NCBI GenBank assembly: GCA_016196885.1
Contig: JACPWU010000004.1
Span: 6,235-38,234 of the forward strand
Length of the DNA stretch: 32,000 nt
DNA from: Chlamydiota bacterium
GTDB taxonomy: Bacteria > Auribacterota > JACPWU01
Reading direction: 5' to 3'
The translations under genes were made by a program, and so were the position numbers. The stretch's first letter is position 1; each line of letters begins with the position of its first letter. Positions 14,024 to 32,000 of this stretch are shown here, piece after piece. A model generated the notes under the pieces. That model did not search any database. It saw only the letters and a list, made by a program, of their open reading frames with translations, and was not told the origin of the DNA.

Positions 14024-14029
14024 TTTTTT

Positions 14030-14052: not shown

Positions 14053-14721
14053 ATGTTGAATTGGTGGCTTCCAGAAGGTATTTCAACCTACAGTGGCAAG
14101 GTGGATGGTATTTTTTACATCATCTTGGCCATCACGGGTCTCATGTTCTTTTTGGTAGAAGGGGCCATTCTTTTCTTTTGCCTTCGCTATCGTCATACCC
14201 AGCACGCGAAAGCCACTTTTGTAGAGGGGAATACCAAGCTGGAAGTGATTTGGACATTGATTCCAGCTGCAATTCTCATTTTCCTGATGTTTAAAAGTCA
14301 AGGGGTGTGGAGCGAGATGAAATCTCACATGCCCGCGAATCCGGATCTTCACATCGAGGTGACGGCTCAACAATTTGCCTGGAATATTCATTATCCGGAC
14401 TCCGAAGTGACCACCTTGAATCAATTGCATATCCCTGTCGGGAAAAAAGTTTTAGTGCAAGTGACCTCAAAGGATGTCATTCACAGTTTTTTTATTCCTC
14501 AATTTCGCCTGAAGCAAGATGCGGTTCCGGGTTCTAAAATCAATGTCTGGTTCGAAGCCACTCAAGTGGGCCATTACGAGCTTGTGTGCGCGGAGTTTTG
14601 CGGTCTTGCGCATTATCGGATGAGGGGCTATTTGAAAATTGAAACACCTGAGGAATTTCAGGCTTGGCTCGACCAGTCTAAGAAAGAAGCCGAGAAGAAG
14701 GGGGACGAGGATGAGTGGTAA
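14053..14721 (+). CDS. ctaC: Cytochrome c oxidase subunit II (CuA, no fused cytochrome c domain)
   Basis: It has two N-terminal TM helices and the CuA site HSFFIP...CAEFCGLAHYRM. Confidence 0.9.
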   Translation: MLNWWLPEGISTYSGKVDGIFYIILAITGLMFFLVEGAILFFCLRYRHTQHAKATFVEGNTKLEVIWTLIPAAILIFLMFKSQGVWSEMKSHMPANPDLHIEVTAQQFAWNIHYPDSEVTTLNQLHIPVGKKVLVQVTSKDVIHSFFIPQFRLKQDAVPGSKINVWFEATQVGHYELVCAEFCGLAHYRMRGYLKIETPEEFQAWLDQSKKEAEKKGDEDEW

Positions 14722-14726
14722 GGACA

Positions 14727-14791
14727 GTCGTGAGTTGTGAGTCGTGAGGGGTGAGTTTCTTAAAAACAGTTATGAGTCGTCGGTCGTGAGT
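14727..14791. repeat. Two direct blocks of tandem TCGTGAG-like 7-mers between subunit II and subunit I genes
   Basis: The blocks are gtcgtgag-ttgtgag-tcgtgag-gggtgag-ttt (14727-14759) and gttatgag-tcgtcgg-tcgtgag-ttt (14769-14794). They are in direct, not inverted, orientation. Confidence 0.6.
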
Positions 14792-14805
14792 TTTAGAGGA
14801 ATAAA

Positions 14806-16431: not shown

Positions 16432-16443
16432 AAATACTATCAA

Positions 16444-16519
16444 CAGTCCACGGTCCATCGTCCATAGAGATAAATGATTCCTTTAAAACTGTGGACCATG
16501 GACTGTGGACCATGGACTG
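16444..16519. repeat. Inverted repeat built from tandem GTCCA(T/C)G units
   Basis: The left arm is cagtccacggtccatcgtccat (16444-16465). The right arm is ctgtggaccatggactgtggaccatggactg (16489-16519). The loop is about 23 nt. It lies between ctaD and the ctaA/ctaB fusion. Confidence 0.7.
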
Positions 16520-16533
16520 GTTGTAGGTTTTGA

Positions 16534-18480: not shown

Positions 18481-18488
18481 GAGATACT

Positions 18489-19088
18489 ATGAGTCATGCG
18501 GCAACAGCGAGTGATGTAAAGGGTTTGAGCCATCCCCTGGGGGTCAACAATGCGAAATTGTGCATGTGGCTTTTTTTGTGTTCAGAGGTGATGTTTTTCG
18601 CAGGATTGATCGGATCTTACATCGTGCTTCGGCTGGGAAGTTTGACTTGGCCGACCCCGGGCGAGATTCTCAACATCCCTCTGACAGGGGTCAATACGTT
18701 TATCTTGATTTGCAGCAGTGTCACCATGGTAAAGGCCTTCGCCTGGGCGCACATGGGAAATCAAACCAAGATCAAAAGGCACCTTTTTCTAACCTTTCTT
18801 TTTGGCGTGATCTTTCTTTCGATCCAGGCCATCGAATATTACAAGTTGTATCATCATCATGGGTTACATCCTTCGGGCAATCTTTATGGGACCTGTTTTT
18901 ATATCCTTACAGGCTTTCATGGCTGCCACGTTTTGGGAGGGGTGATTGCAGTCTTTGTTCTTTGGATCCGGTCTTTGTTGGGACATTTTACAAAGGGGCG
19001 TCATGCCCCGGTTGAATTGGTGGGGCTTTATTGGCATTTTGTGGATTTGGTGTGGATTATTTTATTTACGATTGTTTATTTGATATAA
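18489..19088 (+). CDS. ctaE: Cytochrome c oxidase subunit III
   Basis: The 199-aa five-TM protein carries FFAGLIGSY, GFHGCHVLGGV and YWHFVDLVWI. Confidence 0.9.
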   Translation: MSHAATASDVKGLSHPLGVNNAKLCMWLFLCSEVMFFAGLIGSYIVLRLGSLTWPTPGEILNIPLTGVNTFILICSSVTMVKAFAWAHMGNQTKIKRHLFLTFLFGVIFLSIQAIEYYKLYHHHGLHPSGNLYGTCFYILTGFHGCHVLGGVIAVFVLWIRSLLGHFTKGRHAPVELVGLYWHFVDLVWIILFTIVYLI

Positions 19089-19104
19089 TCTCTTCGGGAG
19101 ATTC

Positions 19105-19392
19105 ATGATGGACCAGGAAAAAGTTGAAAATTTCACGCATCCCAATTATGTTGCAGTTTGGATATGGCTTTTGGTTTTAACGGTGTTGGAGGTCTGTGCC
19201 CTTTATTTGCCTTGCGCCAAGGTTGTAAAAATTTCCGCATTGGTATTTTTGGCCATTACGAAGGCTCTTCTTGTGGCCATGTATTTTATGCATCTTAAAT
19301 TTGAGCGCTTGGTTCTGATCGCAGTGATTGTTTATCCTGTGGTTTTATCGTTGGTGTTGACCCTTCTCACGCGTCTAAGTCTTAAGATCTAA
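19105..19392 (+). CDS. ctaF: Cytochrome c oxidase subunit IV (prokaryotic COX4_pro family)
   Basis: The 95-aa three-TM protein has a KALLVAMYFMHLKFE motif. It sits immediately after subunit III. Confidence 0.75.
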   Translation: MMDQEKVENFTHPNYVAVWIWLLVLTVLEVCALYLPCAKVVKISALVFLAITKALLVAMYFMHLKFERLVLIAVIVYPVVLSLVLTLLTRLSLKI

Positions 19393-19411
19393 CGCTATTT
19401 CGGGCAATCCC

Positions 19412-20053
19412 TTGACTTTGGATTCCAAAATCTTTCAGAGACTTTTGTGGGGCCTCCTCGTTTTTGTGATGTCGGGGGTTTTCGGTGCTTTTGTTTGGTC
19501 GAAATGGCAAAGTGTCTCCCCGCCTCTTCCTATTTATGGAACGCTTCCTGATGTTGAATTGACAGAAAGAAATGGAAAAACTTTTCTCCTCTCAGATTTG
19601 AATGGGAAAATCTGGATTGCCAATTTCATTTTTACGCATTGTGGGGGACAATGTCCCCTCATGAGCTCAGAAATGAAGAGGATGCGAGGTGAGTTGTCTC
19701 CCAGCGATGATTTGAGATGGGTGTCTTTTACGGTGGATCCCCAAAGGGATACGCCAGAAGTTTTATCCAGTTACGCTCAAGGTTTAGGGGCCGGGGATGA
19801 CTGGTTATTTCTTACGGGAGATCAGGATAAAATTTTTAATTTGGCAAGAAAGGGATTTTACCTAGGCGTGGAGGAAGGCGGGACAAAAGTGGAACCCATC
19901 ATGCACAGCAACCGCTTTGTCTTGGTGGACCGCCAGGGCCATATTCGGGGGAGTTACAGTGTTTTGGGAGATTTTTCGGGATCGGGTTCTGTGGATTTAT
20001 CAGCTCTGGCCCAATTGAAAAAAGATGTGATGAATTTATTGAGGGAAAAATGA
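19412..20053 (+). CDS. SCO1/SenC family copper chaperone (thioredoxin fold)
   Basis: It has an N-terminal TM anchor, a CxxxC motif (FTHCGGQCPLM) and a distal His (PIMHSNRFVLVD). It uses a TTG start. Confidence 0.8.
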   Translation: MTLDSKIFQRLLWGLLVFVMSGVFGAFVWSKWQSVSPPLPIYGTLPDVELTERNGKTFLLSDLNGKIWIANFIFTHCGGQCPLMSSEMKRMRGELSPSDDLRWVSFTVDPQRDTPEVLSSYAQGLGAGDDWLFLTGDQDKIFNLARKGFYLGVEEGGTKVEPIMHSNRFVLVDRQGHIRGSYSVLGDFSGSGSVDLSALAQLKKDVMNLLREK

Positions 20054-20466
20054 GTTTCATCCCTCTTTCCATTTTCCCAAAGTTAAATGCTTCTTTAAAT
20101 GCGACTTCGGCGTGTTTTCTCCTGGCGGGATATATTCTGATCCGCAAAAAGAAAATTTCGGCCCATCGTTTTTGCATGCTGGGCGCTTTAATCGTTTCTT
20201 TCGTCTTCCTCATTTGTTATCTTTATTACCATGCGCATCATGGCGTGACCCGGTTTCAAGGTCAGGGATGGCTTCGACCTTGTTATTTTTCGATTCTCAT
20301 TTCGCATACGGTTTTGGCGGTGCTTGTTTTCCCTATGGCGCTTGTGACGGTCTATCGGGCCTTTAGGGAGGATTGGAGTCGCCATAAGCGGTTGGCCCGC
20401 TGGACGTTCCCGATATGGCTTTATGTGTCTATCACAGGTGTGATCGTTTATGCGATGCTTTATTAA
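20050..20466 (+). CDS. DUF420 family membrane protein (CtaM-like, oxidase-associated)
   Basis: The 138-aa four-TM protein carries LNASLNATSACFLLAGYILIRKKKISAHR. It overlaps the SCO gene by 4 nt (ATGA), at the usual position at the end of cta operons. Confidence 0.7.
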   Translation: MSFIPLSIFPKLNASLNATSACFLLAGYILIRKKKISAHRFCMLGALIVSFVFLICYLYYHAHHGVTRFQGQGWLRPCYFSILISHTVLAVLVFPMALVTVYRAFREDWSRHKRLARWTFPIWLYVSITGVIVYAMLY

Positions 20467-22950: not shown

Positions 22951-23344
22951 ACTTTCTTGCCTCAACCAATTCATTGAAAGGGGCCTTGGAAAATTTAGAG
23001 ACCACCTCCGATATTTTTTTACCATCGGGATTAACTTCCGATTTCCCGCAGAAAACGACGCCCTCTTCAATGACAAGCCGAGAGGCTTTGATGTCGCCTA
23101 GAAGCTGGGCTTGTGCCTTTAATTCCACTTTGTCTCGAGCGGTGATATTGCCTTGCACTTTTCCTTCAAGGGTAGCGCTTTGAACGTTAATGTCCCCTTT
23201 CACTTCGCCCGTAGGGCCCAGGACAAAGTGGCCTTCAGAAATCACTTGCCCTTCGATTTTTCCGTCCAGTCTCAAGGTGTTGGTAAATTTTAAAGTTCCT
23301 TTTAATTCTACTTCTGCGTTAAGAATATTTTCTTGATTTGTCAT
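22949..23344 (-). CDS. Bactofilin (polymer-forming cytoskeletal protein)
   Basis: LKGTLKFTNTLRLDGKIEGQVISEGHFVLGPTGEVKGDINVQSATLEGKVQGNITARDKVELKAQAQLLGDIKASRLVIEEGVVFCG is the canonical bactofilin repeat pattern. I chose the ATG at 23344 because of a perfect SD (AAGGAG) 6 nt upstream. Confidence 0.85.
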   Translation of the reverse strand: MTNQENILNAEVELKGTLKFTNTLRLDGKIEGQVISEGHFVLGPTGEVKGDINVQSATLEGKVQGNITARDKVELKAQAQLLGDIKASRLVIEEGVVFCGKSEVNPDGKKISEVVSKFSKAPFNELVEARK

Positions 23345-23445
23345 AAATCGCTCCTTGATTTTGATATTTGATTTAAGCACACCGCTTTGGATTTGTCACG
23401 GGAAAAGGGCCTTTTCGCTTGAATCTGCCGATTCTGATGTGATAG

Positions 23446-23525
23446 TGTGCCTACGTACCGATGTGTCAATGTGCCAATGAAAAAAAGATATCATGGCGTT
23501 GGCACATAGGTACATTGGCACAATG
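23446..23525. repeat. Inverted repeat built from TGTGCCAA-type units in the tpx upstream region
   Basis: The left arm is gtgtgcctacgtaccgatgtgtcaatgtgccaatg (23446-23479). The right arm is catggcgttggcacataggtacattggcacaatg (23492-23525). It ends 8 nt before the tpx SD. Confidence 0.65.
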
Positions 23526-23544
23526 TTATAATAAGGAGGTATTT

Positions 23545-24063
23545 ATGTCTCAAGAGAGAAAAGGGGCTGTGACATTTAAGGGAAATCCTCTCACACTCGT
23601 GGGTCCAGAGCTCAAGGTTGGAGCCCAGGCGCCTGAGTTCCAGCTTTTGGCGAATGATTTATCCGTGGTAAATTTGGCCAGTTCAAAAGGCAAGACGCGT
23701 CTTTTTAATGTGGTCCCTTCTTTGGACACGCCTGTCTGTGATTTACAGACGAAGCGTTTCAATGAAGAAGCGGGGAGATTCCCCTCTCAGATTCAGGTTT
23801 ATACGGTCAGTTGTGATCTTCCCTTTGCGCAAGCAAGGTGGTGTGGTCAGGCCAAAGCAGATCGAATTAAATTCCTTTCAGATCATCGTGATCTCTCCTT
23901 CGGTCAAGCCTATGGTCTTTGGATCAAAGAGCTTCGGCTTTTGACCCGAGCGGTGGTCATCGTGGATGCCAATGATAAAGTTTCCTATATTCAGGTGGTT
24001 AAGGAAGTGACGAATCAACCTGATTACGAGGATGTGTTGAATTCTTTAAAGCAGAAGGTTTAA
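23545..24063 (+). CDS. tpx: Thiol peroxidase (atypical 2-Cys peroxiredoxin Tpx)
   Basis: VTFKGNPLTLVGPELKVGAQAPEF...FNVVPSLDTPVCDLQTKRFNEEA...SCDLPFAQARWC is the Tpx signature. I chose the ATG at 23545 because SD AAGGAGG lies at 23533-23539. The upstream 28 codons in the track are hairpin DNA. Confidence 0.9.
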   Translation: MSQERKGAVTFKGNPLTLVGPELKVGAQAPEFQLLANDLSVVNLASSKGKTRLFNVVPSLDTPVCDLQTKRFNEEAGRFPSQIQVYTVSCDLPFAQARWCGQAKADRIKFLSDHRDLSFGQAYGLWIKELRLLTRAVVIVDANDKVSYIQVVKEVTNQPDYEDVLNSLKQKV

Positions 24064-24066
24064 TAG

Positions 24067-24160
24067 AATAGCGTACAGCGGTAAGCGTACAGCGTACAGT
24101 TAAAAAAGTAAGATTTGTTTTTACTGACCGCTGAGCGCTATACGCTGTACGCTTTCTTTT
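24067..24160 (+). terminator. AGCGTAC-unit inverted repeat, probable (leaky) terminator after tpx
   Basis: The left arm is aatagcgtacagcggtaagcgtacagcgtacag (24067-24099). The right arm is ccgctgagcgctatacgctgtacgct (24128-24153). It is followed by ttcttttgg. Only about 10 nt remain before the ATG at 24171. Confidence 0.45.
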
Positions 24161-24170
24161 GGAATGAATC

Positions 24171-25841
24171 ATGAATAAATCTAAGCTCTTACGAGATCTT
24201 CTCCATCGTCCCGGCCCCGTTTTAGTGACCGGGGCCCATGATGCGATGAGTGCCAAGCTGATTGAAGAAGCGGGTTTTGACGGCATTTGGGCGAGCGGCT
24301 TTGGCATCTCAGCCGCCCAGCGCTGCCTTCCGGACGCCAATTACATGACGATGACGGAAAATCTTGAAATTGCCAAAAACATGAATGAGGTCGTCCACAT
24401 TCCTGTGATTGCGGATTGTGACAATGGCTACGGCAACGCCTTGAATGTGATGAGAACCGTGGCTCAATATGAGAAGGCAGGTATTGCAGGTATTTCTATT
24501 GAAGACAATATTTTTCCCAAAAAGTGCAGTTTCTATCCAGGTTTTAAAAGGGAACTGGTGTCGCTCGAAGAGATGGAAGGAAGGATTCGGGCTGGAAAAT
24601 CTGCTCAGGGGGGGTCAGATTTTGTCCTGATTGCCCGTACAGAGGCCTTGATTGCGGGTTGGGGGATGGAAGAGGCCTTGAAACGGGGTCGGGCTTTTGC
24701 CCGAGCGGGGGCCGATGCTGTTTTGATTCATTCCAAATCTCGAGCCCCCGATGAAGTGATTCAATTTGCAAAATCGTGGGATCAAAATATTCCTTTGGTT
24801 GTGGTGCCGACCATTTTTGATTCCATCAGTGCGGATGAGTTGCACGAGGCCGGTTTTAAAGTGATTATTTTTGCCAATCAGCTGATTCGTTCGTGCATTC
24901 GCTCGATGCGGGAAATGCTGGGGGAATTGCGGCAGAAAAAGTATGCCGGTGCGGTGAATGATCATTTGGTTACTTTGGAAGAGGTTTATAAACTTGTGGG
25001 TGTGGATGAAATGAAGCAGGCGGAAGACACGTTTCTTCCTGTCTCCGGAAATGATGTCAAGGCGATTATTGTCAATGCCGGATTTGAAAAGCATTTGATG
25101 CCTCTCATTGAAGATCGGCCCAAAGGGATGTTGGACATTAAGGGGAAAACCATTCTCGAACGCCAGATAGAGGTGCTCAACGCCTGCGACATCAAGGATA
25201 TTTCAGTGGTCCGGGGTTATCGCTCGGAAGCCATCCGTGTTCCTAATCTTCGCTATTATGAAAATCCAGATTATGAAGAGAGCTATATTTTGTCTTCTTT
25301 CTTTTGTGCGAGCCCCCAGATTCAGGATCGGGTGCTTTTTCTCTATGGAGACATTCTCTTCGACCGTGTGGTTTTGGAGAAACTTTTACAGTCGTCGGCG
25401 GATATTTCTCTCGTGGTTGACCTGGCTTGGTATGATGCCCATCGCCAGGGTGCTATCCCTGAAGGGCTCGAGCGGGAATTGGTGATGATGGAAGAACCTC
25501 CTCAGGCGACGTATCGTTACCTCCCTTCAGAAGAGAACCACCGCATTTTAAAAATCGGGCAGAATTTGGATCGTAGATCAGCGCATGGAGAATTTATTGG
25601 AATGGCGATGTTTTCTCCCACCGCTTCACAAGTGTTCATTCAAGAATATGAAAGATTGAAAAAGGAAGATCCAGGCGGACCCTTTCATGAAGCGCCTTCC
25701 TTGAAAAAGGCATCGCTCACGGACATGATTCAGGAATTGGTGGATCGTGGATTTCCGGTCAAGGGGGTGGATATCTACAAAGGCTGGATGGAAGTGGATA
25801 CCTTTGAGGATTATCAAAGGGCGTGGGCACAATCGAAATAA
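24171..25841 (+). CDS. pepM: Phosphoenolpyruvate mutase-like domain fused to a C-terminal nucleotidyltransferase-fold domain
   Basis: The N-terminus (GAHDAMSAKLIEEAGFDGIWASGFGISA...PVIADCDNGYGN...GISIEDNIFPKKCS) is of the ICL/PEPM superfamily and closest in pattern to PepM. The C-terminal ~260 aa have a LicC/PntC-like fold (RPKGMLDIKGKTILERQIEVL...YGDILFD). The context is ppd plus an aminotransferase. Confidence 0.7.
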   Translation: MNKSKLLRDLLHRPGPVLVTGAHDAMSAKLIEEAGFDGIWASGFGISAAQRCLPDANYMTMTENLEIAKNMNEVVHIPVIADCDNGYGNALNVMRTVAQYEKAGIAGISIEDNIFPKKCSFYPGFKRELVSLEEMEGRIRAGKSAQGGSDFVLIARTEALIAGWGMEEALKRGRAFARAGADAVLIHSKSRAPDEVIQFAKSWDQNIPLVVVPTIFDSISADELHEAGFKVIIFANQLIRSCIRSMREMLGELRQKKYAGAVNDHLVTLEEVYKLVGVDEMKQAEDTFLPVSGNDVKAIIVNAGFEKHLMPLIEDRPKGMLDIKGKTILERQIEVLNACDIKDISVVRGYRSEAIRVPNLRYYENPDYEESYILSSFFCASPQIQDRVLFLYGDILFDRVVLEKLLQSSADISLVVDLAWYDAHRQGAIPEGLERELVMMEEPPQATYRYLPSEENHRILKIGQNLDRRSAHGEFIGMAMFSPTASQVFIQEYERLKKEDPGGPFHEAPSLKKASLTDMIQELVDRGFPVKGVDIYKGWMEVDTFEDYQRAWAQSK

Positions 25842-25842
25842 C

Positions 25843-25935
25843 GTTCAAAAGTTTAAAAGTTCAAAGGTTCAAAGGAATTTTGAGCTTTGAGGTTTTTACT
25901 TTTGAGCTTTTAAACCTTTGAACCTTTGAACTTTC
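25843..25935. repeat. Inverted repeat built from (G/T)TCAAAG 7-8-mers
   Basis: The left arm is gttcaaaagtttaaaagttcaaaggttcaaagg (25843-25875). The right side is tttgagctttgagg...ttttgagc...aacctttgaacctttgaactttcg (25879-25935). It lies between pepM and ppd alpha. Confidence 0.7.
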
Positions 25936-25940
25936 GTTTT

Positions 25941-26438
25941 ATGACATGTACAACATTGTCGCACGATTTCTGGAAGCAATTGAAGCAAAAAGGTTTTAAT
26001 TTTTTTACCGGCGTTCCTTGTAGTTTTCTAGAAGATTTGATCGCTTGTGTGAGTGAACACGAAAAATATTTGCCCGCCGTCCGGGAAGATGCGGCGATGG
26101 GAGTGGCTGTGGGAGCTTGGCTGGGCGGCAGGAAACCCGTGCTCCTGATGCAAAATTCAGGGCTTGGGGTTTCTTACAATGCACTCACCTCGCTTAACTT
26201 GATTTATAAGATTCCGGTTCTCATGGTGATTTCTCTAAGGGGCTATCAAATTCCGGATGCACCGGAGCATCTCATCATGGGTGCCATCACTCCTCAACTG
26301 TTAGATATCGTTCAAATTCCTTATCGCATTCCCTCTCGAGAAAGTTTGGAAGAAGATTTAGAATTCTGTATCACTCAAATGGAAAAGCAACAAATTCCAA
26401 CAGCCCTTCTCATGAGGAAAGGAATTTTTGGGGGTTGA
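25941..26438 (+). CDS. Phosphonopyruvate (or sulfopyruvate) decarboxylase alpha subunit (ThDP pyrimidine-binding domain)
   Basis: GFNFFTGVPCSFLEDLI...REDAAMGVAVGAWLGGRKPVLLMQNSGLG has the catalytic Glu region of ThDP enzymes of the Ppd/ComD type. I prefer the ATG at 25941 over the TTG at 25926. Confidence 0.75.
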   Translation: MTCTTLSHDFWKQLKQKGFNFFTGVPCSFLEDLIACVSEHEKYLPAVREDAAMGVAVGAWLGGRKPVLLMQNSGLGVSYNALTSLNLIYKIPVLMVISLRGYQIPDAPEHLIMGAITPQLLDIVQIPYRIPSRESLEEDLEFCITQMEKQQIPTALLMRKGIFGG

Positions 26439-26447
26439 ATTAGGGAA

Positions 26448-26557
26448 AATGACCAATATCCAATTTCAAATGTCAAATGAATGACCCATTACTAATCTTC
26501 AATTGGACATTGGTTCATTGGAAATTAATTTGTCATTTGTTATTGGACATTGGTTAT
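26448..26557. repeat. Inverted repeat built from CCAAT/CAAATG-type units between the two decarboxylase subunit genes
   Basis: The left arm is aatgaccaatatccaatttcaaatgtcaaatgaatgaccc (26448-26487). The right arm is caattggacattggttcattgg...tttgtcatttgttattggacattggttatt (26500-26557). Confidence 0.7.
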
Positions 26558-26570
26558 TATCAAGGAGTGT

Positions 26571-27125
26571 ATGAAGAGAATCGAAGCCATTCAAAAAGTC
26601 TCAAATTTACTCAAAGATGAACTCGTCATTCATGCGAATGGCCATATTTGCCGGGAGTCTTATTTTGCAAAAGACCGTCCGGAAAATTTTTACATGATTG
26701 GCTCAATGGGCCTTCCGCCGGCGATTGCCTTGGGTGTGGCTTTGTCTCATCCTGAACGGAAGGTAGTGGTGTATGATGGGGATGGCAGCGTCTTGATGGG
26801 TCTTGGGACTTTGACGATGGTTGGGAGTCTCAAACCCAAAAATCTCATTCACATCGTTTTCGACAATGAGACTTATGGATCTACAGGAGAACAGCCCACG
26901 CTCTCAAAATACGTTCCTCTGGAAAAAATTGCTTTAGATTCTGGCTATCGCATTTGCGAAAAAGTAGATCGGAATGAAAATTTAGATGAAAAACTTAAAA
27001 TAGTTTTCACGGAAGAAGGACCTTCTTTCTTGTTGATTAAAGTAGAGTCGAGTGATGGCGAGGCATGTCCTCGCGTGAAATTATCCCCTGTTGAAATAAG
27101 AGATAGATTCCAGTCCAGTATATGA
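26571..27125 (+). CDS. Phosphonopyruvate (or sulfopyruvate) decarboxylase beta subunit (ThDP pyrophosphate-binding domain)
   Basis: It carries GSMGLPPAIALGVAL and the ThDP motif YDGDGSVLMGLGTL...VFDNETYGSTG. I chose the ATG at 26571 because SD AAGGAG lies at 26562-26567. Confidence 0.8.
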   Translation: MKRIEAIQKVSNLLKDELVIHANGHICRESYFAKDRPENFYMIGSMGLPPAIALGVALSHPERKVVVYDGDGSVLMGLGTLTMVGSLKPKNLIHIVFDNETYGSTGEQPTLSKYVPLEKIALDSGYRICEKVDRNENLDEKLKIVFTEEGPSFLLIKVESSDGEACPRVKLSPVEIRDRFQSSI

Positions 27126-28234
27126 AACGAGTCTCCCCCTTCACATGTTTTCTTTTAAATCCGGGTCCGGTGAATACTTCTCTTCAAGTAAGAAAAGCTT
27201 TATTGAGGGGAGATCTTTGCCATCGGGAAAAAGAGTTTTCGGATCTTCTCTTGAAAGTCAGAAAGAATTTACTGAAGTCATTTGGACTCGAGAAGGATTA
27301 TCTAGCTGTTTTTATAACGGGTTCTGGAACAGCAGCCCTTGAGGCGGCCATGATCTCCTCTTTGAATCCTCAAGGGAAGGTGCTGGTTCTCTCCAATGGG
27401 GTTTATGGTGATCGCATGGCAAGAATCGCAGAAATTTATCAGTTTCCCAATCGAGTGTTGCGCGTTCCCCTAGGAGAACCTTTTTCTTTGGAAGAAATAG
27501 AAAAGGTGCTTGCAGAGGATCATAAAATCGATGCCGTAGCCATGGTTCATCATGAAACTTCAACGGGCATGTTGAACCCGATCGAAAAAATCAGTCGTCT
27601 GAAGAGCATGAAAGGAAAGCGCTTGATTTTAGATGCCATCAGTAGCCTAGGAGGAGAAGCTCTCCATTTCAAAAAATCTTCCATTCATGTTTGCGTCGGA
27701 ACAGCGAACAAATGTTTACAGGGCTTGCCAGGAGTTTCTTTTGTCCTGGTACGCAAGGATGCCTTTGAGGAAATAAAAAATTTTCCCCCACGCACTTTAT
27801 ATTTAGATCTTCGCACTTATTGGAAAGAACAGGAAAAGGGCGGTGTTCCTTTTACCCCATCGGTGCAGACCTTCTATGCCCTGGATGTTGCATTGGAGGA
27901 ATTGCTTCGAGAACATGTTCGAGGACGTGTTCAACGCTACGGGCTTTATGCTCAAAGGTTACGCCAGGGTTTTAAAAAAATGGGACTTGAATATTTTATT
28001 GATTCTTCCTTCCATTCAAATACTTTAACAGCCTTGAAACTTCCCCAAGGACTGACTTACGATTTTTTGCACGACGCGTTAAAAGAGGAAGGCTTTGTCA
28101 TTTATGCGGGTCAAGGCTCGCTTCAAAAGAAAATCTTTCGCGTCGCCAACATGGGGAATTTGAAAATGAAGGATTTGGAGAGATTTTTGAAATGTTTAAC
28201 GAATGTCTTGAAGAAACGAGAGACGAAAAAATGA
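27122..28234 (+). CDS. Class V aminotransferase, 2-aminoethylphosphonate:pyruvate transaminase type
   Basis: LLNPGPVNTSLQV..., GSGTAALEA..., HHETSTGMLNP and the TANKCLQG Lys region follow the PhnW/AGXT family layout. It overlaps the ppd beta stop by 4 nt. Confidence 0.75.
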   Translation: MKRVSPFTCFLLNPGPVNTSLQVRKALLRGDLCHREKEFSDLLLKVRKNLLKSFGLEKDYLAVFITGSGTAALEAAMISSLNPQGKVLVLSNGVYGDRMARIAEIYQFPNRVLRVPLGEPFSLEEIEKVLAEDHKIDAVAMVHHETSTGMLNPIEKISRLKSMKGKRLILDAISSLGGEALHFKKSSIHVCVGTANKCLQGLPGVSFVLVRKDAFEEIKNFPPRTLYLDLRTYWKEQEKGGVPFTPSVQTFYALDVALEELLREHVRGRVQRYGLYAQRLRQGFKKMGLEYFIDSSFHSNTLTALKLPQGLTYDFLHDALKEEGFVIYAGQGSLQKKIFRVANMGNLKMKDLERFLKCLTNVLKKRETKK

Positions 28235-29601
28235 AAGCCCTTATTCTTGCAGCTGGTGTGGGTAAAAGACTTTCTCCTTATACCGATCATTCCCCTAAAT
28301 GTGTGATTGAGTTTGGAGGAACGACGCTTATCGAACGCATGTTGAAATGTCTGAAGAGTGCAGGTGTAAAAGAAGTTTATATCGTGATCGGGCATCTCAA
28401 AGAAAAAATTCAGAAAAAAGTGGGAGAAAGTTTTGGGGATTTATCCATTCAATACATCGTCAATCCTCGTTATCAAGAAGGAAGTATTCTTTCTCTTTAT
28501 GGTGCCAAAGACATTTTGAAGGGCGATGATTTCCTCATCATGGATGCCGATGTGCTTTTCCCTCTTCAGGCGCTGGAGAGGTTGGTACATTCAAGGCATG
28601 CAAATTGTCTCCTGTTGGATCAGAGTTTTAAAGACACTGCCGAAGAGATGAAATTGGGAGCTCGAGACGCTCGGGTGTATGAGATCGCGAGGAAAATGTC
28701 TCAAACCTATGAAAAAGTGGGGGAGGGCGTTGGTTTTTTAAAAGTTTCTCAAGGTTCTCTTCCCTCTCTTGTGGCCAAACTGGATGAGTTTTATCAAAAA
28801 GGGCGGGCCGCTTGCGAATACGAGGATGCCATGAATGAATGGTTCAAAATAGAAAAGGTGGGTTATGAGCCTGTTCAAGATTTACCTTGGACAGAGGTAG
28901 ATTTTTACGAGGATTTAAGAAAGGCCTGGCTTCAAGTTTTGCCCAAGGTGGAACATTTAGAAAATTCCAAAAATTTAGTGAAACCTCTCAACCGCCGTCT
29001 GTCTTATTTTTTGACACGCCTTTTTCTTAAAACCCCCATCATACCCAATCAGATTACAGTTTTAAGTTTTCTCTCAGGTCTTGTCTCCCTTTTCTTTTTT
29101 AGCCGGGGCGGCTATAGAAATGGTTTAATCGGTGCCCTTTTCTTTCAGCTCTTTTATGTCTTAGACAATTGCGATGGAGAGGTGGCTCGTGCGAAGGCCC
29201 TTTTTAGCAAGTGGGGGGGCTGGATGGATATTGGTTGTGACGGTATGATTCATGCTCTTTTATTTCCTTCTATTGCGTGGGGCTTGTGTCGTCAAGGAAA
29301 TCTTGAGACAATGAGGACCTTGGGTTGGATTGCGTCAGCAGGGTCTGTCATCACGTTCTTCATTTTTATGGCCAAGCGGTTTTGCAAGGCGAGGGAAGGG
29401 AAACTCCGTCTTGTTCCTCCTCGTGAGGAGGCAAAATTTAAAATCCTGGGATATCTCAAGGCCGGGGATTTTTCCATTGTTTTGGCTTGTTTTGCAATAC
29501 TCGGGGCATGGCAAATTTTTCTCTGGGCCTCGGCCATCGGCCTTCATCTTTTTTGGATATCGGCACTTCTCTTTCATTTGGAAGAGGCGTCGGTGGGATG
29601 A
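28231..29601 (+). CDS. Bifunctional nucleotidyltransferase / CDP-alcohol phosphatidyltransferase
   Basis: The N-terminal MKALILAAGVGKRLSPYTDHSPKCVIEFGG is the canonical GxGxR NTP-transferase loop. The C-terminal membrane domain has a complete CDP-alcohol signature DNCDGEVAR-x8-G-x3-D-x3-D (nt 29164-29241). The ATG at 28231 overlaps the upstream stop (ATGA). Confidence 0.8.
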   Translation: MKALILAAGVGKRLSPYTDHSPKCVIEFGGTTLIERMLKCLKSAGVKEVYIVIGHLKEKIQKKVGESFGDLSIQYIVNPRYQEGSILSLYGAKDILKGDDFLIMDADVLFPLQALERLVHSRHANCLLLDQSFKDTAEEMKLGARDARVYEIARKMSQTYEKVGEGVGFLKVSQGSLPSLVAKLDEFYQKGRAACEYEDAMNEWFKIEKVGYEPVQDLPWTEVDFYEDLRKAWLQVLPKVEHLENSKNLVKPLNRRLSYFLTRLFLKTPIIPNQITVLSFLSGLVSLFFFSRGGYRNGLIGALFFQLFYVLDNCDGEVARAKALFSKWGGWMDIGCDGMIHALLFPSIAWGLCRQGNLETMRTLGWIASAGSVITFFIFMAKRFCKAREGKLRLVPPREEAKFKILGYLKAGDFSIVLACFAILGAWQIFLWASAIGLHLFWISALLFHLEEASVG

Positions 29602-29610
29602 TCAGGAATC

Positions 29611-30597
29611 ATGAATCGAAAAAAACTGCTTCTCTTATTGGGCGTTGGCCTGTTTATCTATCTCACGACAAGTGTGGGATGGCGGCCGATTGTGGATGAG
29701 ATTCATAAGTTAAAATGGAATTTTATTCCTTTATTTTTGATTTATGCCTTCATCTGTACCCTCGACAGTCTCGGATGGCGCTTTGGTTTTAAGGCGGGGG
29801 CGTGTCGGGTCGGTTTGTTTCAGCTTTTTTGGATTCGGGTGGCTGGAGAAGCTGTTAATAATACGACGCCGACAGGCTATGTGGGAGGGGAACCCGTCAA
29901 GGCAATGCTCTTGAAGAGGCATGGGATTCCCATGACGGAAGGCTTGGCCTCTTTGGTCGTTGCCAAGACCACTCTGACTTTGTCTCAGATTCTTTTCGTC
30001 TTCATCGGTTTAGGTCTTGCCTTTGCTCGACTTGAAATTTCTGCCACGGTTCGGTTTGTTTTATTAACCGCCATGATTGTTTTGACCCTTTTGGTTTCTC
30101 TCTTTCTCTTTTTTCAAGGCAGGGGCCTTTTCTCCTGGATTGCCAAAACACTCATCCGTTTCAAGATTGCCCATCATTTCTTGATTCGGATCATGGAGAA
30201 AATTTTGGAGCTGGAATCCCACATTGAAACTTTTTACAAGGCTTCAAAGAAGAGATTTCTCCTCTCTTTTTTCTTTCATTTTTTGGGATGGCTCGCTGGT
30301 ATTTTGGAAATTTATTTTATCTTAAGATGTTTACATCTTCCCTTGGGGGTTTGGGATGCCTTTGTGATCGAGGCCTTGCATCAGCTCATTCGAGGCCTCG
30401 CCTTTATGGTCCCGGGCAATTTGGGAACGCAGGAGGGAGGAAACCTCTTTATCTTTCGCCTTTTTAACTTAGGCAGTGTGTGGGGTCTCACCGTCAGCCT
30501 CATCCGCCGCATTCGCGAAATTTTTTGGTCGGGCCTGGGATGGATGCTTTTGGCCTTTTGGGGGAGGAAAGAAAAATTTGGCGTAGGAAAGTTCTAA
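29611..30597 (+). CDS. Flippase-like / lysylphosphatidylglycerol-synthase-TM (UPF0104) family membrane protein
   Basis: This is a 328-aa polytopic protein. Its N-terminal KKLLLLLGVGLFIYL..., FWIRVAGEAVNNTTPTGYVGGEPVKA and the C-terminal PGNLGTQEG motif are typical of PF03706 proteins. Confidence 0.6.
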   Translation: MNRKKLLLLLGVGLFIYLTTSVGWRPIVDEIHKLKWNFIPLFLIYAFICTLDSLGWRFGFKAGACRVGLFQLFWIRVAGEAVNNTTPTGYVGGEPVKAMLLKRHGIPMTEGLASLVVAKTTLTLSQILFVFIGLGLAFARLEISATVRFVLLTAMIVLTLLVSLFLFFQGRGLFSWIAKTLIRFKIAHHFLIRIMEKILELESHIETFYKASKKRFLLSFFFHFLGWLAGILEIYFILRCLHLPLGVWDAFVIEALHQLIRGLAFMVPGNLGTQEGGNLFIFRLFNLGSVWGLTVSLIRRIREIFWSGLGWMLLAFWGRKEKFGVGKF

Positions 30598-31592
30598 TGG
30601 CGATTCACTTCGTAACCGGTGGAACAGGATTCGTTGGGAGTCACGTGGTTGAAAGACTTCTCTTGAGAGGTGAGAAGGTTCGAATCCTTACGCGGCCCCA
30701 GAGTGATTTACAAAATTTAAAGAATTTTGCTGTTGATTTAATTCAAGGAGATCTTCGAGATCCTGCCACATTTTCAAATGCGCTTCAAGGTTGTGACACC
30801 CTCTTTCATGTCGCTGCAGAATACACCTTGTGGGTGAGAGATCCCAAAATTCTTTATGATGCCAATGTGGATGGCACCGTTTGCATCATTCAAGAGGCCT
30901 TGAGACGCGGCGTTAAAAAAGTGGTTTACACCAGCACCGTGGGTGCCCTGGGTATTCCCAAAAATGGAATGCCAGGGGATGAAAAAACGCCTGCCCGCTT
31001 AGAGGAAATGATTTCCCATTACAAACGTTCGAAATTTCTGGCGGAGGAAAAGGTAAGACATTTGGCCGAAAGCGGAGCGCCTATTGTCATTGTCAATCCC
31101 AGCACCCCTGTTGGAACCCGTGATATGAAGCCGACTCCCACCGGTCAAATGATTGTGGATTTTCTCAAAGGGAAGATGAAGGGCTATGTCGAGACGGGTC
31201 TTAATTTAATCGATGTAGAAGATGTGGCTGAGGGCCATCTCTTGGCGGCAGAGAAGGGAAAAGTAGGGGAGAGATACATCTTGGGAAACCAGAATTTAAC
31301 ATTAAAAGAGATATTTTATTTACTATCTAAAATAAGTGGAATTCCGGCACCAGTTTTTAAAATGCCTTATTTCCTTGCCATTGGCCTGGCCTATGCAAAT
31401 ACGGCCTATGCGAATTGGATCAGCTGCAAGCCTCCTTCTATTCCTTTAGATGGCGTTCGTATGTCGCGCAAGAAAATGTTTTTTGATGCCTCAAAGGCGG
31501 TTCGAGAATTAGGCCTTCCTCAGAATTCAGCGGAGGAGGCTTTGCGAAAGGCTGTGACCTGGTTTCGGGAGAGGGGGTATGTGAGATCATAG
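30597..31592 (+). CDS. hpnA: NAD-dependent epimerase/dehydratase, hopanoid-associated sugar epimerase (HpnA)-like
   Basis: It carries VTGGTGFVGSHVV (Rossmann), FHVAAEYTLWVRDP, HYKRSKFLAE (YxxxK), IVNPSTPVGTRDMKPTPTGQMIVDFL, GERYILGNQNLTL and DGVRMSRKKMFFDASKA. These match the HpnA subfamily pattern along the full length. The ATG at 30597 overlaps the upstream stop (TAATG). Confidence 0.65.
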   Translation: MAIHFVTGGTGFVGSHVVERLLLRGEKVRILTRPQSDLQNLKNFAVDLIQGDLRDPATFSNALQGCDTLFHVAAEYTLWVRDPKILYDANVDGTVCIIQEALRRGVKKVVYTSTVGALGIPKNGMPGDEKTPARLEEMISHYKRSKFLAEEKVRHLAESGAPIVIVNPSTPVGTRDMKPTPTGQMIVDFLKGKMKGYVETGLNLIDVEDVAEGHLLAAEKGKVGERYILGNQNLTLKEIFYLLSKISGIPAPVFKMPYFLAIGLAYANTAYANWISCKPPSIPLDGVRMSRKKMFFDASKAVRELGLPQNSAEEALRKAVTWFRERGYVRS

Positions 31593-32000
31593 GTTTCAAA
31601 CTCAAGACATGAAGTTCCGCTCTTCTATTCACATTCAGAAATGGCTCTTTATTTTGGGTGCTAATCACTTTTTTCTCTGGGATGGATTCTAAAAAATCAA
31701 TCATCGAGAGGTGATCTTTATTCATTTTCTCTAAAAGGGTGTAGGAAAGAGAGGGTTCATAGAGACCTGGAAAGGGTTGAAGAAAACCCTCAGGATGACG
31801 AAAGACAGTTATTTTATTTTTCACTTGATGAGAGCTCATCAGTGTGAGGAGGCTTTCAAGTGTGACCTCAGGCATGTCACAAGTGAGGACGAGAAGGGAC
31901 GTGTTTTCAAACATTCGACACGCCGTATAGAGACCTCCTAGCGGGCCTTTCCCAGGAATGAGATCTTGCTCGGTTCTGCATTTCAAGAAGGAATAATTTT
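31438..32000 (-). CDS. mobA: Molybdenum cofactor guanylyltransferase MobA-like (5' end outside the window)
   Basis: DLIPGKGPLGGLYTACRM...LVLTCDMPEVTLESL...FLNVNRRAEL is the MobA pattern. The frame stays open to nt 32000, so the true start is beyond the window. There is no stop until 31438, which gives a 155-nt convergent overlap with hpnA. Confidence 0.6.
   Translation of the reverse strand, partial: NYSFLKCRTEQDLIPGKGPLGGLYTACRMFENTSLLVLTCDMPEVTLESLLTLMSSHQVKNKITVFRHPEGFLQPFPGLYEPSLSYTLLEKMNKDHLSMIDFLESIPEKKVISTQNKEPFLNVNRRAELHVLSLKPMISHTPSPETRSQPFAKPPPLNSEEGLILEPPLRHQKTFSCATYERHLKE

Follow-up and report, generated by a model that had tools for sequence, protein, structure and literature searches.

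The locus at 24171-31592 of the window (the whole 32,000-nucleotide stretch of DNA that was analysed, part of an environmental 'Chlamydiae bacterium' MAG) places phosphonate genes directly before a CDP-alcohol phosphotransferase, a flippase-like membrane protein and HpnA, and raises the question of what the cluster makes and which molecule carries the product. We read it, with a probability of about 0.6, as an operon-like gene set that would build a phosphonate head group for a lipid, with a hopanoid polyol as the favoured acceptor. What we observed are the genes and their domains, intact catalytic motifs, a predicted fold and conserved neighbourhoods; from these we infer all of the enzymatic activities, the acceptor and the flipping. 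An earlier note on this DNA had proposed a phosphonolipid pathway; its domains, fusion architecture and gene linkage stood, but the idea had been published before and the PEP mutase assignment is weaker than the note had assumed.

Genes and junctions of the cluster

The ORF list and the sequence place seven ORFs on the + strand exactly where the earlier note had drawn its genes, and ORF coordinates, Pfam and NCBIfam profiles and junction letters agree with the genes, domains and junctions that it described.

24171..25841, +: fusion of a PepM-like domain (aa 1-290) and an NTase-like domain (aa 291-556), presumed variant-clade PEP mutase
25941..26438, +: PpdA, predicted N-terminal (alpha, TPP_enzyme_N) subunit of phosphonopyruvate decarboxylase
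26571..27125, +: PpdB, predicted C-terminal (beta, TPP_enzyme_C) subunit of phosphonopyruvate decarboxylase
27122..28234, +: predicted 2-aminoethylphosphonate aminotransferase (AEPT), class V
28231..29601, +: putative bifunctional fusion of a PntC-like cytidylyltransferase (aa 1-245) and a CDP-alcohol phosphotransferase (aa ~250-456)
29611..30597, +: HpnL-like membrane protein, UPF0104 / MprF flippase-type domain
30597..31592, +: HpnA, hopanoid-associated SDR ('sugar epimerase')
23455-23521: intergenic hairpin (inverted repeat and RNA fold)
24070..24153, no strand: intergenic hairpin upstream of the PepM-like gene (inverted repeat and RNA fold)
25856-25934: intergenic hairpin (inverted repeat and RNA fold)
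about 26445-26560: intergenic hairpin (inverted repeat and RNA fold)

PpdB and AEPT share an ATGA overlap at 27122, as do AEPT and the fusion at 28231; a 9-nt gap, TCAGGAATC, separates the fusion from the HpnL-like gene, which in turn overlaps hpnA by 1 nt (TAATG). The gene order is beyond chance: dozens of loci across several phyla repeat the block ppdA-ppdB-AEPT-NTase(-CDP-OH)-HpnL-like. No coupling links the first three genes, whose spacers of ~100-130 nt contain very stable hairpins. The four strong hairpins marked by inverted repeats between 23450 and 26570 fold as RNA with energies between -28 and -44 kcal/mol and z-scores of -3.8 to -7.6; the remaining 23 kb contain a single weaker inverted repeat.

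The predicted route to CMP-AEP

The first protein, which would convert PEP to phosphonopyruvate, matches PEP_mutase (PF13714, 204 bits) and NTP_transf_3 (PF12804) in Pfam. The best PDB matches of its PepM-like domain are the PEP mutase 5UNC (283 bits), PPH 2DUA (238) and Mytilus PepM 1M1B (223), and its residues D58, D85, D87, E114, K120, R159 and H190 are conserved, with all Mg2+ and phosphoryl ligands retained. K116 is replaced by N and N122 by C, and the gating-loop motif reads EDNIFPKKCS, without the diagnostic EDKX5NS; residue 122 of PEP mutase is held to distinguish the mutase from phosphonopyruvate hydrolase. Of the related loci, 22/22 share this motif, as do 120/120 of the nearest homologues. 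Lacking EDKX5NS, the clade is missed by published inventories. We infer PEP mutase activity for the domain, and the earlier assignment is weakened by the motif and by a TIGR02320 score of 272.9, under the cut-off of 319.55.

The same deviations could mean that no phosphonate is made de novo and that the EDN..CS clade is, for example, of the hydrolase or lyase type, acting on another 3-substituted pyruvate (such as in a route from sulfopyruvate through sulfoacetaldehyde to taurine) or in salvage. Two of the five PEP mutase-defining motif residues are replaced, the Cys falls at the position of the catalytic Cys of the superfamily lyases (K[KR]C), TIGR02320 is not reached, NCBI names the proteins of this clade 'isocitrate lyase/PEP mutase family protein', and the decarboxylase halves score alike on ComD/ComE and Ppd models. 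We nevertheless consider this very unlikely: lyases score only about 125 bits against the domain in the PDB search, the ligands named above are kept, and the gene always occurs with Ppd, AEPT and PntC-like genes. Intermediate EDN..NS motifs bridge the EDN..CS and EDK..NS clades, and the Roseomonas and Burkholderia cassettes carry a canonical EDK..NS PepM, which speaks for an equivalent role of the variant clade. A sulfonate, moreover, would not suit NTase/CDP-OH chemistry, for which we know of no way of activating and transferring it.

The next two genes are a split Ppd/ComDE-like decarboxylase, as judged from profile matches, and would convert phosphonopyruvate to phosphonoacetaldehyde, drawing the reaction forward. 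The PpdA ORF (25926-26438, TPP_enzyme_N PF02776) opens with TTG at 25926, with a likelier ATG start at 25941, and that of PpdB (26550-27125, TPP_enzyme_C PF02775, 64.7 bits) with TTG at 26550, the likelier start being ATG 26571 with an AAGGAG RBS 6 nt upstream. PpdA matches TIGR03297 Ppyr-DeCO2ase (129.9 bits, model positions 1-155) and sulfopyruvate decarboxylase alpha TIGR03845 (126.7 bits), both below cut-off, and PpdB scores 182.4 on TIGR03846 vs 178 on TIGR03297 (model positions 170-358), so that both halves score equally as ComD/ComE subunits. The class V aminotransferase, which would convert phosphonoacetaldehyde to 2-aminoethylphosphonate (AEP), exceeds the cut-off of the AEP-specific equivalog TIGR03301 PhnW-AepZ (369.3 vs 360.8). 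Taken with the cytidylyltransferase described below, these genes make it likely, in our view, that AEP is made and CMP-activated.

The predicted cytidylyltransferase/phosphotransferase fusion

The NTase domain fused to PepM has a degenerate P-loop (NAGFEKH...RPK), and the active PntC is therefore probably the one joined to the CDP-OH transferase. This 456-aa protein (28231-29601) matches PF12804 NTP_transf_3, PF00483 NTP_transferase and PF01066 CDP-OH_P_transf. By sequence and model, PntC, the AEP-specific cytidylyltransferase, is the closest relative of its NTase domain: the domain matches PntC 6PD1 with 60 bits in the PDB sequence search, and equivalents of PntC R15/K25/K153/E196 are present (catalytic residues from PMC6697681). 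It would make CMP-AEP from CTP and AEP. The CDP-OH domain has six predicted TM helices and an intact motif, D312xxD315G316xxA319R320x8G329xxxD333xxxD337, which is invariant in 24 homologues; it would place the aminoethylphosphonyl group on a membrane-lipid hydroxyl, with release of CMP. The IPCT/DIPPS-like architecture seen by the earlier note is borne out, as the top PDB sequence match is A. fulgidus IPCT/DIPPS 4MND, aligned over aa 1-409 and both domains, and a Foldseek search with the AF2 model (pLDDT 88.4) found 4MND first and then PntC-AEPT 6PD2 at an rmsd of 2.5 A. IPCT/DIPPS channels CDP-inositol between two domains, and the fusion may work likewise; DIPPS, the nearest solved relative, takes a soluble acceptor, which speaks against the lipid that we propose for the fusion.

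Neighbourhoods were counted in 85 non-redundant related loci. ppd/AEPT adjoin the NTase in 79, PpdA lies beside PpdB/AEPT in 75, a CDP-OH domain is present in 72, and an HpnL-like gene follows the CDP-OH gene in 63; none of the 85 is a compatible-solute locus. The fusion is therefore tightly linked with ppd, AEPT and pepM-like genes, as had been claimed, and the earlier note's case for its own refutation, a fusion mainly away from pepM/ppd genes such as in compatible-solute loci, is not borne out. The counts also bear on a non-lipid acceptor, to which we give the lowest probability of all readings: an IPCT/DIPPS-like enzyme would modify a soluble or glycan-bound alcohol, yielding a phosphonate diester solute or a decorated polysaccharide or polyol, as in a phosphonoglycan-type surface modification. 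The soluble acceptor of 4MND fits this, as does the belief that about half of pepM clusters make phosphonoglycans (PMC8942020). NF041135 is the best NCBIfam match of the fusion, but its 136 bits are far under the cut-off of 580, and the cluster has no inositol-phosphate synthase, glycosyltransferase or LicD-type gene. Compatible-solute loci are missing from the related set, a flippase-like membrane protein is conserved directly downstream, and the recurrent neighbours are lipid (hopanoid/isoprenoid) genes. We consider it probable that the AEP head group is transferred to a lipid.

Hopanoid neighbours and the probable lipid acceptor

The membrane protein at 29611-30597 matches LPG_synthase_TM (PF03706, 117.9 bits), TIGR03476 HpnL (192.5 vs a cut-off of 195.65) and the TIGR00374 flippase-like domain (88), and would flip the modified lipid to the outer leaflet. 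The last protein (30597-31592) passes HpnA TIGR03466 (461, cut-off 367.65), has 3WJ7 as its best PDB match and shares 74% identity with the HpnA of L087, a Chlamydiota-clade contig in which shc is the next gene. L087 shares upstream synteny with the window and continues hpnA-shc-hpnG/hpnE-hpnD-hpnC, with a DVDD motif in its SHC; NCBI 'Chlamydiae bacterium' MAGs have the order hpnA-shc-hpnG-hpnEDC. In the window, the next ORF after hpnA is MobA-like and convergent with it, and no shc is visible in the 408 nt left 3' of hpnA.

HpnA lies next to the cassette in 12 related loci, and shc, hpnH or hpnG is there in 12/12. Omnitrophota and Planctomycetia have phosphonate genes interleaved on one strand between hpnH and hpnA/hpnG (shc-hpnH-ppdA-ppdB-AEPT-hpnL-hpnA-hpnG-...-fusion-lytB), and shc, hpnH, hpnG and hpnA adjoin the cassette in Methylomirabilota/Rokubacteria. 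By RefSeq annotation, the cassette of Roseomonas marmotae p1318-3 has hpnN-like/polyprenyl synthase genes on one side and ispH-hpnH-hpnG-shc-hpnEDC-hpnA on the other. A cassette inside the hopanoid clusters of several phyla suggests an undescribed phosphonate-bearing hopanoid, and what was a side remark in the earlier note is now the best-supported lead. The literature searched contained no phosphorus-containing hopanoid, and we know of no CDP-alcohol phosphotransferase with a triterpenoid acceptor. We tentatively favour an extended hopanoid polyol (bacteriohopanetetrol-type), which would give an AEP-hopanoid.

The main alternative, which we consider rather unlikely, is that the acceptor is diacylglycerol or another glycerolipid: AEP on sn-1,2-diacylglycerol would give a classical phosphonoglycerolipid, a C-P analogue of phosphatidylethanolamine, with the hopanoid genes merely co-located. 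The Kennedy pathway sets the precedent, with diacylglycerol as acceptor from CDP-ethanolamine-type donors, and this proposal mirrors the route of eukaryotic ethanolamine/choline phosphotransferases, yet the PDB search detected no sequence similarity between the CDP-OH domain and eukaryotic CPT/EPT. Hopanoid genes are absent within 10 kb in 70/85 related loci, mostly Nitrospira, and near the Burkholderia locus L089, and two Chlamydiota-clade relatives (L001 and L088) lack hpnA. Against this stand the phosphonate genes interleaved with or embedded in the hpn clusters of Omnitrophota, Planctomycetia, Roseomonas and L087, the hopanoid-associated HpnL subfamily of the adjoining membrane protein, and the hopanoid capability of all lineages seen with the cassette. 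Nitrospirales, the commonest carriers, encode shc and hpnH (PMC10579370).

A phosphonoglycerolipid is also the published prediction for homologous clusters. The phosphonolipid idea itself has been published: clusters that combine pepM-ppd-AEPT with a pair of cytidylyltransferases, a CDP-alcohol phosphatidyltransferase and hpnL were already predicted as 'Group 1 phosphonolipid' clusters, and 'terpene-phosphonate' clusters have been flagged before. The phosphonolipids of these groups are still uncharacterised (Li & Horsman 2022, PMC8942020), and the searchable literature holds no characterised dedicated bacterial AEP:lipid transferase, in line with the earlier note. The cassette type carries the published label 'Group 1 / Burkholderiales_CDP-OH phosphonolipid', and the prediction spans Burkholderiales_CDP-OH / Nostoc clusters.

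The proposed phosphonate cassette and its enzymes

The gene order that the earlier note had read from the sequence was recovered as seven co-directional open reading frames (ORFs):

24171-25841, + strand: PEP_mutase domain (Pfam, 204 bits) fused to a MobA-like nucleotidyltransferase (NTase) domain
25926-26438, + strand: N-terminal half of a decarboxylase, TPP_enzyme_N (Pfam/NCBIfam); ATG 25941 is the better start
26550-27125, + strand: C-terminal half of the decarboxylase, TPP_enzyme_C (Pfam/NCBIfam); ATG 26571, with AAGGAG, is the better start
27122-28234, + strand: class V aminotransferase (TIGR03301, 369.3 against a cut-off of 360.8)
28231-29601, + strand: fusion of an NTase and a CDP-alcohol phosphotransferase (CDP-OH_P_transf; Pfam, NCBIfam)
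29611-30597, + strand: membrane protein of 328 aa (PF03706, 118 bits; HpnL model TIGR03476, 192.5 against 195.65)
30597-31592, + strand: SDR protein, HpnA (TIGR03466, 461 against a cut-off of 367.65)

All four junctions cited for translational coupling were confirmed (two ATGA overlaps, a gap of 9 nt and a TAATG overlap). The proposed pathway and its candidate transferase stand with partial support, which comes from homology and conserved context. 2-Aminoethylphosphonate (AEP) would be formed in the cytoplasm, CMP-AEP would be made by the PntC-like domain of the NTase/CDP-alcohol phosphotransferase fusion (hereafter, the fusion), and the membrane domain of this protein would pass the aminoethylphosphonyl group on to a hydroxyl of a lipid. 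Export of the product to the outer leaflet would then fall to the HpnL-like protein, with its domain of the MprF-flippase type.

The putative phosphonopyruvate decarboxylase (Ppd) is split over two ORFs, whose scores against TIGR03297 (129.9 and 178) sum to ~308, with a cut-off of 312.5. The same halves score 126.7 and 182.4 against the alpha and beta subunits of sulfopyruvate decarboxylase, both under the cut-off. These values equal the Ppd scores and would fit a sulfonate substrate, as in ComDE, but the aminotransferase is AEP-specific, scoring above the cut-off of the biosynthetic PhnW/AepZ equivalog, and the NTase/CDP-alcohol phosphotransferase chemistry also speaks against it. The sulfonate reading is therefore disfavoured.

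The identification of the first gene product as a PEP mutase (PepM) is supported by its ligand residues and its overall similarity. A HMMER alignment to Mytilus PepM (1M1B, whose residue numbers are used here) retains all Mg2+ and phosphoryl ligands (D58, D85, D87, E114, K120, R159, H190), and the domain is closest to solved PEP mutases (5UNC, 283 bits; PPH, 238; lyases, ~125). It does not hold at the level of the diagnostic motif and model: EDKX5NS is replaced by EDNIFPKKCS (K116 to N, N122 to C), and the score against the PEP mutase equivalog TIGR02320 is 272.9, below the cut-off of 319.55. NCBI naming of these proteins stops at the family level. A lyase, as the K-K-C of the loop might suggest, is unlikely, since the domain is more than twice as similar to PEP mutases as to lyases and retains every phosphoryl ligand.

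The variant loop is widely shared. The pattern ED[NS]xxPK[KR]CS[FL]Y is present in all 22 PepM-like proteins of the related loci, and EDNxxPK[KRQ]CSFY in 120 of the 120 nearest database homologues (at least 58% identity). When 50%-identity representatives were searched across the whole library, nearly all of ranks 1-11 were Cys variants, and the canonical EDK..NS form takes over at rank 12; the Cys variant occurs in 26 of the best 150 representatives, and EDN..NS intermediates also exist. Position 122 lies in the gating loop, is Thr in phosphonopyruvate hydrolase and is commonly taken to divide mutase from hydrolase. EDKX5NS has served as the acceptance criterion for Ppm in inventories (Rice 2019, PMC6697681; Li & Horsman 2022, PMC8942020; and Yu 2013, as cited in later papers). 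As this filter would discard the clade, EDN..CS carriers are missing from published inventories. The same cassette carries a canonical EDK..NS PepM in Roseomonas and Burkholderia, which argues that the EDN..CS clade is functionally equivalent. We conclude that EDN..CS proteins form a large, coherent sister clade of the canonical PEP mutases, whose activity we infer from context, with the neighbouring Ppd and AEP aminotransferase genes as indirect support.

The cassette encodes two NTase domains. The one fused to PepM (25041-25841) deviates from the PntC signature, reading NAGFEKH..RPK and thus lacking the second Gly and the Arg, and this degenerate P-loop (AAGFE[KP]x...PK) is kept across the nearest homologues examined. 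Alanine substitution of the same Arg cripples Treponema denticola PntC (PMC6697681). In a comparison of this domain with the PDB, PntC structure 6PD1 was not matched at E<1e-3. Judging from its sequence, the PepM-fused domain may be catalytically altered or non-catalytic. Given the degenerate P-loop and the missing 6PD1 match, the domain joined to the CDP-alcohol phosphotransferase is the likelier candidate for the active CMP-AEP synthase; if so, substrate channelling would be allowed, by analogy to IPCT/DIPPS.

The fusion has 100% identity to an NCBI protein of a 'Chlamydiae bacterium' metagenome-assembled genome. Its NTase domain contains the PntC signature (GVGKR-x8-PK). The domain residues R13, K23, R154 and E198 align to PntC R15, K25, K153 and E196, the importance of which is known from mutagenesis or structure (PMC6697681), and the position of PntC E104 is Asp, as in LicC. 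Among PDB sequences, the fusion ranks closest to 4MND (82 bits, aa 1-409), followed by AF2299, PntC 6PD1 and LicC. Foldseek with the AlphaFold model (pLDDT 88.4) likewise placed 4MND first and the PntC-AEPT structure 6PD2 second, with an rmsd of 2.5 A over ~255 columns between the NTase domain and 6PD2. The likeness to the architecture of archaeal IPCT/DIPPS enzymes, proposed in the earlier note, is thus borne out by both sequence and predicted fold; together with the PntC residue equivalents, these matches indicate that the NTase half is best called PntC-like within an IPCT/DIPPS-like architecture. The C-terminal half scores 37.9 against PF01066 (gathering threshold 22) and has six predicted transmembrane (TM) helices, with the signature site at TM2-TM3. 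The signature D312xxD315G316xxA319R320x8G329xxxD333xxxD337 does not vary among 24 aligned full-length homologues, which come from Chlamydiota, Nitrospira and Omnitrophota.

IPCT/DIPPS of A. fulgidus (4MND) shares with the fusion an N-terminal cytidylyltransferase, a C-terminal CDP-alcohol phosphotransferase with six TM helices and an identical CDP-alcohol phosphotransferase catalytic motif, but identity is only ~24%. Unlike the archaeal enzyme, the fusion sits among phosphonate and hopanoid genes rather than with inositol-phosphate synthase; its expected donor is CMP-AEP instead of CDP-inositol, and its expected acceptor a lipid instead of inositol-1-phosphate. The score against the IPCT/DIPPS equivalog NF041135 is 136 bits, with a cut-off of 580. 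PntC of T. denticola (Tde1415, 6PD1/6PD2; PMC6697681) has the closest solved fold to the NTase domain after 4MND, and its gene adjoins or is fused to that of the AEP aminotransferase (AEPT), just as the fusion gene adjoins AEPT. The two differ in their partner, which is an aminotransferase in PntC and a membrane transferase in the fusion, and share ~22% identity.

The arrangement of the domains varies between lineages. In most Nitrospira (L047, 10001-12226, is typical of many loci), the NTase is a separate gene of 239 aa, and the CDP-alcohol phosphotransferase domain lies at the C-terminal end of a protein of 474 aa, in which the first ~280 aa match nothing in Pfam. In Scalindua (L026, 11065-12003), the corresponding protein has 312 aa, with ~140 N-terminal aa that have no assignment.

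Conserved neighbourhoods and the hopanoid link

The neighbourhood of the fusion was surveyed by a profile search of one genome per GTDB species, which yielded 80 loci, complemented by loci from exact-protein look-ups. Window proteins and hopanoid enzymes were mapped on these by tblastn, giving 85 non-redundant loci. They come from Nitrospira (the majority), Omnitrophota, Planctomycetia, Scalindua/Brocadiia, Methylomirabilota/Rokubacteria, Binatia, Verrucomicrobiia and the Chlamydiota clade. The earlier note had named occurrence of the fusion mainly away from pepM and ppd genes as grounds for abandoning the proposal; it does not occur mainly elsewhere, and ppd and/or AEPT directly adjoin the NTase in 79 of the 85 loci. 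The CDP-alcohol phosphotransferase domain is fused or encoded by the next gene in 72, an HpnL-like gene lies downstream in 63, and a PepM-like/NTase fusion is found inside the fetched flank in 24. A compatible-solute context was seen in 0 of the 85 loci, and on this ground, together with the NF041135 score far under its cut-off, we reject a compatible-solute (DIPPS) function. Transfer to a soluble alcohol or a glycan is less likely than transfer to a lipid, and so is a substrate other than a phosphonate.

Which lipid might be modified is suggested by the genes around the cassette. Five Omnitrophota and three Planctomycetia loci carry phosphonate genes beside hopanoid genes, and in six of these eight the phosphonate genes lie between them on one strand. 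The most complete arrangement reads shc, hpnH, ppdA, ppdB, AEPT, hpnL-like, hpnA, hpnG, (SHC_C-like fragment, Rieske), fusion, lytB. In six Methylomirabilota/Rokubacteria-type loci, shc and/or hpnH are directly upstream of the cassette, with hpnG and hpnA present in three. On the Roseomonas marmotae plasmid p1318-3 (RefSeq), the cassette is flanked on one side by an MMPL transporter and a polyprenyl synthase and on the other by ispH-hpnH-hpnG-shc-hpnE-hpnD-hpnC-glycosyltransferase-hpnA. Once HpnH and HpnG have acted, an extended hopanoid has a primary hydroxyl at C-35 to offer. An acceptor made by these two enzymes would agree with the way ppd, AEPT and hpnL are interleaved between their genes.

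In the Omnitrophota and Planctomycetia (L005, 8659-10008; also L008-L011), a protein of 334 aa, with no more than a weak match to SQHop_cyclase_C, and a Rieske protein of 114 aa are encoded directly upstream of, and overlapping, the fusion gene. Both are conserved, the first at 74-84% and the second at 51-62% identity.

A parallel within the Chlamydiota clade is a 25-kb contig (L087) that shares the SCO1-DUF420-MFS-bactofilin-Tpx genes upstream, with proteins 57-79% identical to those of the window. After its cassette (PepM-NT, PpdA, PpdB, AEPT, fusion, HpnL-like, HpnA), shc follows directly, coding for 662 aa with the DVDD motif, and then hpnG; hpnE-hpnD-hpnC are on the other strand. Among named sequences, this SHC is most closely related to those of NCBI 'Chlamydiae bacterium' metagenome-assembled genomes, on contigs with hpnA-shc-hpnG/hpnE-hpnD-hpnC-nadA. 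HpnA is recognized in the window by its score, and its adjacency to shc is visible in the syntenic L087 (74% identity) and in two such 'Chlamydiae bacterium' contigs (L091 and L093); no shc was seen in the window, which ends 408 nt after hpnA. Two clade relatives (L001, L088) lack hpnA.

On these Chlamydiota-clade contigs, hpnA, shc (DVDD), hpnG, hpnE, hpnD and hpnC, a full squalene-to-hopene set, lie beside nadA (L087, 13464-19303; L091, 6785-14202; L093, 8001-14085). A recent survey of hopanoid distribution does not mention Chlamydiota (10.1101/2025.07.29.667474).

The HpnL-like protein falls just under the TIGR03476 cut-off, and its homologues reside within hpn clusters at nine loci (L005, L008, L009, L013, L043, L049, L086, L087, L090). 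The same survey lists HpnL as hopanoid-associated with unknown function (10.1101/2025.07.29.667474). A sequence search of the protein against solved structures gave no match. Like the flippase domain of MprF, it is encoded with an enzyme that would modify a lipid head group, but it lacks the C-terminal aminoacyl-PG synthase domain. The nearest solved structure of HpnA is 3WJ7 ('putative oxidoreductase', 317 bits), and further matches are a mixture of sugar epimerases and reductases of the cinnamoyl-CoA, dihydroflavonol and sterol-4-carboxylate types, so the label 'sugar epimerase' may mislead. As a speculation, HpnA could be a carbonyl reductase acting on a hopanoid side chain.

A hopanoid acceptor, mentioned only in passing in the earlier note, thereby becomes our leading hypothesis. 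In its specific form, the cassette product would be AEP esterified to the side-chain polyol of a bacteriohopanepolyol, with a triterpenoid as the acceptor of the transferase and HpnL as the flippase, a reading to which we assign a probability of roughly one in three. Transfer to diacylglycerol is a serious alternative. Core hopanoid genes lie within 10 kb in 15 of the 85 loci, and at all 12 loci in which hpnA adjoins the cassette. Local hopanoid linkage was not seen in the Nitrospirales loci; Nitrospirales encode shc and hpnH (PMC10579370).

Relation to predicted phosphonolipid clusters

The logic of a cytidylyl-AEP used by a CDP-alcohol phosphotransferase to modify a lipid is an existing prediction and is not new, and the literature searched holds no characterised enzyme for it, in line with what the earlier note had supposed of the lipid transferase. 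Li & Horsman (2022; PMC8942020) equate their 'Burkholderiales_CDP-OH' group with the 'Group 1 phosphonolipids' of Yu et al. Its core comprises a Ppm-PntC fusion, Ppd, AEPT, a 2OG oxygenase, a second PntC and two phospholipid genes, and its phosphonolipid product is described as uncharacterised (PMC8942020). A Nostoc version contains a CDP-alcohol phosphatidyltransferase and hpnL (PMC5987646), and we verified the B. cenocepacia version by mapping. The window cluster shares with this group the fusion of Ppm with a PF12804 nucleotidyltransferase, Ppd, AEPT, the second cytidylyltransferase, the CDP-alcohol phosphatidyltransferase and the hpnL-type protein. It differs in that its second NTase is fused to the CDP-alcohol phosphotransferase, its Ppd is split, its PepM motif is EDN..CS instead of EDK..NS, and its hpnA is translationally coupled to the cassette. 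It also lacks the 2-oxoglutarate/Fe(II) oxygenase, so that plain AEP rather than 1-hydroxy-AEP is expected.

A second set of relatives comprises clusters labelled 'terpene-phosphonate' by antiSMASH in Nitrosococcus (PMC7285500) and acidophilic Acetobacteraceae (PMC8776678), in which pepM, ppd and AEPT are physically linked to squalene and hopanoid genes. R. marmotae resembles them, with NTase, PepM-NT, Ppd, HpnL-like, AEPT and CDP-alcohol phosphotransferase genes within hpnH-hpnG-shc-hpnEDC-hpnA. These reports concern Proteobacteria with canonical PepM and give no product, mechanism or transferase candidate, whereas the window holds a Chlamydiota version in which hpnA alone is still attached. 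Our literature searches on phosphono-hopanoids, AEP with hopanoids and a characterised bacterial phosphonolipid synthase returned only such antiSMASH-level remarks, and no report of a phosphorus-containing hopanoid.

Decoration of the cell surface is the supposed role of about half of the phosphonate gene clusters in bacteria. The locus and its relatives point to one candidate enzyme, the PntC-like/CDP-alcohol phosphotransferase, fused or as adjacent genes, and to one testable acceptor class, the hopanoid polyols. If the hopanoid reading is true, the product would be the first phosphorus-containing hopanoid and the enzyme the first NTase/CDP-alcohol phosphotransferase with a triterpenoid acceptor. 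The 'Group 1 phosphonolipids', long predicted for Burkholderia, Nostoc, Nitrospira, anammox bacteria and others and never isolated, would be hopanoid conjugates, and a function would be assigned to HpnL and possibly HpnA. The large EDN..CS clade of PEP mutases would be the source of the C-P bond in many environmental lineages, hopanoid-producing Chlamydiota among them, and motif-filtered surveys would undercount phosphonate producers among Nitrospira, anammox bacteria, Methylomirabilota, Omnitrophota and environmental Chlamydiota, with consequences for how the environmental phosphorus redox cycle is estimated. Biomarker geochemistry would gain a new class of polar hopanoids that standard BHP work-ups would miss or destroy. 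With diacylglycerol as the acceptor, the result would be a modest extension of the existing prediction.

Surroundings of the cassette in the window

Upstream of the cassette, the window encodes a cytochrome c oxidase cluster (aa3-type, 13316-20466), an MFS transporter, two bactofilins and a thiol peroxidase, and this synteny is common to other Chlamydiota-clade contigs. Further upstream is a lasso-peptide-like gene set (589-12945):

589-2403: PF14907 nucleotidyltransferase fused to a methyltransferase
3203-3874: 2OG-Fe(II) oxygenase
4096-4560, - strand: Transglut_core3 protease
6355-8181, - strand: Asn_synthase-type protein
9210-12945, - strand: two ABC exporters

Downstream, hpnA is followed by a convergent MobA-like ORF (31438-31986, - strand), at the place that shc takes in L087. 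The ORF matches only positions 68-194 of the MobA model and lacks the N-terminus, and its tail of ~50 aa overlaps the 3' end of hpnA in antisense by 155 nt. It may be a gene that was truncated or frameshifted and that marks a rearrangement.

A scan of 23300-32000 for promoter and terminator consensus sequences gave counts at or below shuffle expectation. Between the first three cassette genes lie spacers of ~100-130 nt, which form very stable hairpins when folded. In total, four long intergenic hairpins occur in 23450-26570 (23455-23521, 24070-24153, 25856-25934 and ~26445-26560), flanking tpx, the PepM-like gene and PpdA, with folds of -28 to -44 kcal/mol and z-scores of -3.8 to -7.6; the remaining 23 kb of the window contain one inverted repeat only, which is weaker. 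The listed start of the thiol peroxidase (Redoxin) ORF (23461-24063) falls within the first hairpin, and as the conserved domain opens near residue 52, the true start is probably an internal Met (MSQERKG...). All four hairpin sequences are different and made of short tandem motifs, such as GCGTACAG and AAAGTTCAAAGG repeats. They may be attenuators, mRNA stabilisers or small palindromic elements. Since the spacers are short or absent at the same junctions in two clade relatives (L001 and L087), the hairpins look like insertions particular to the genome of the window.
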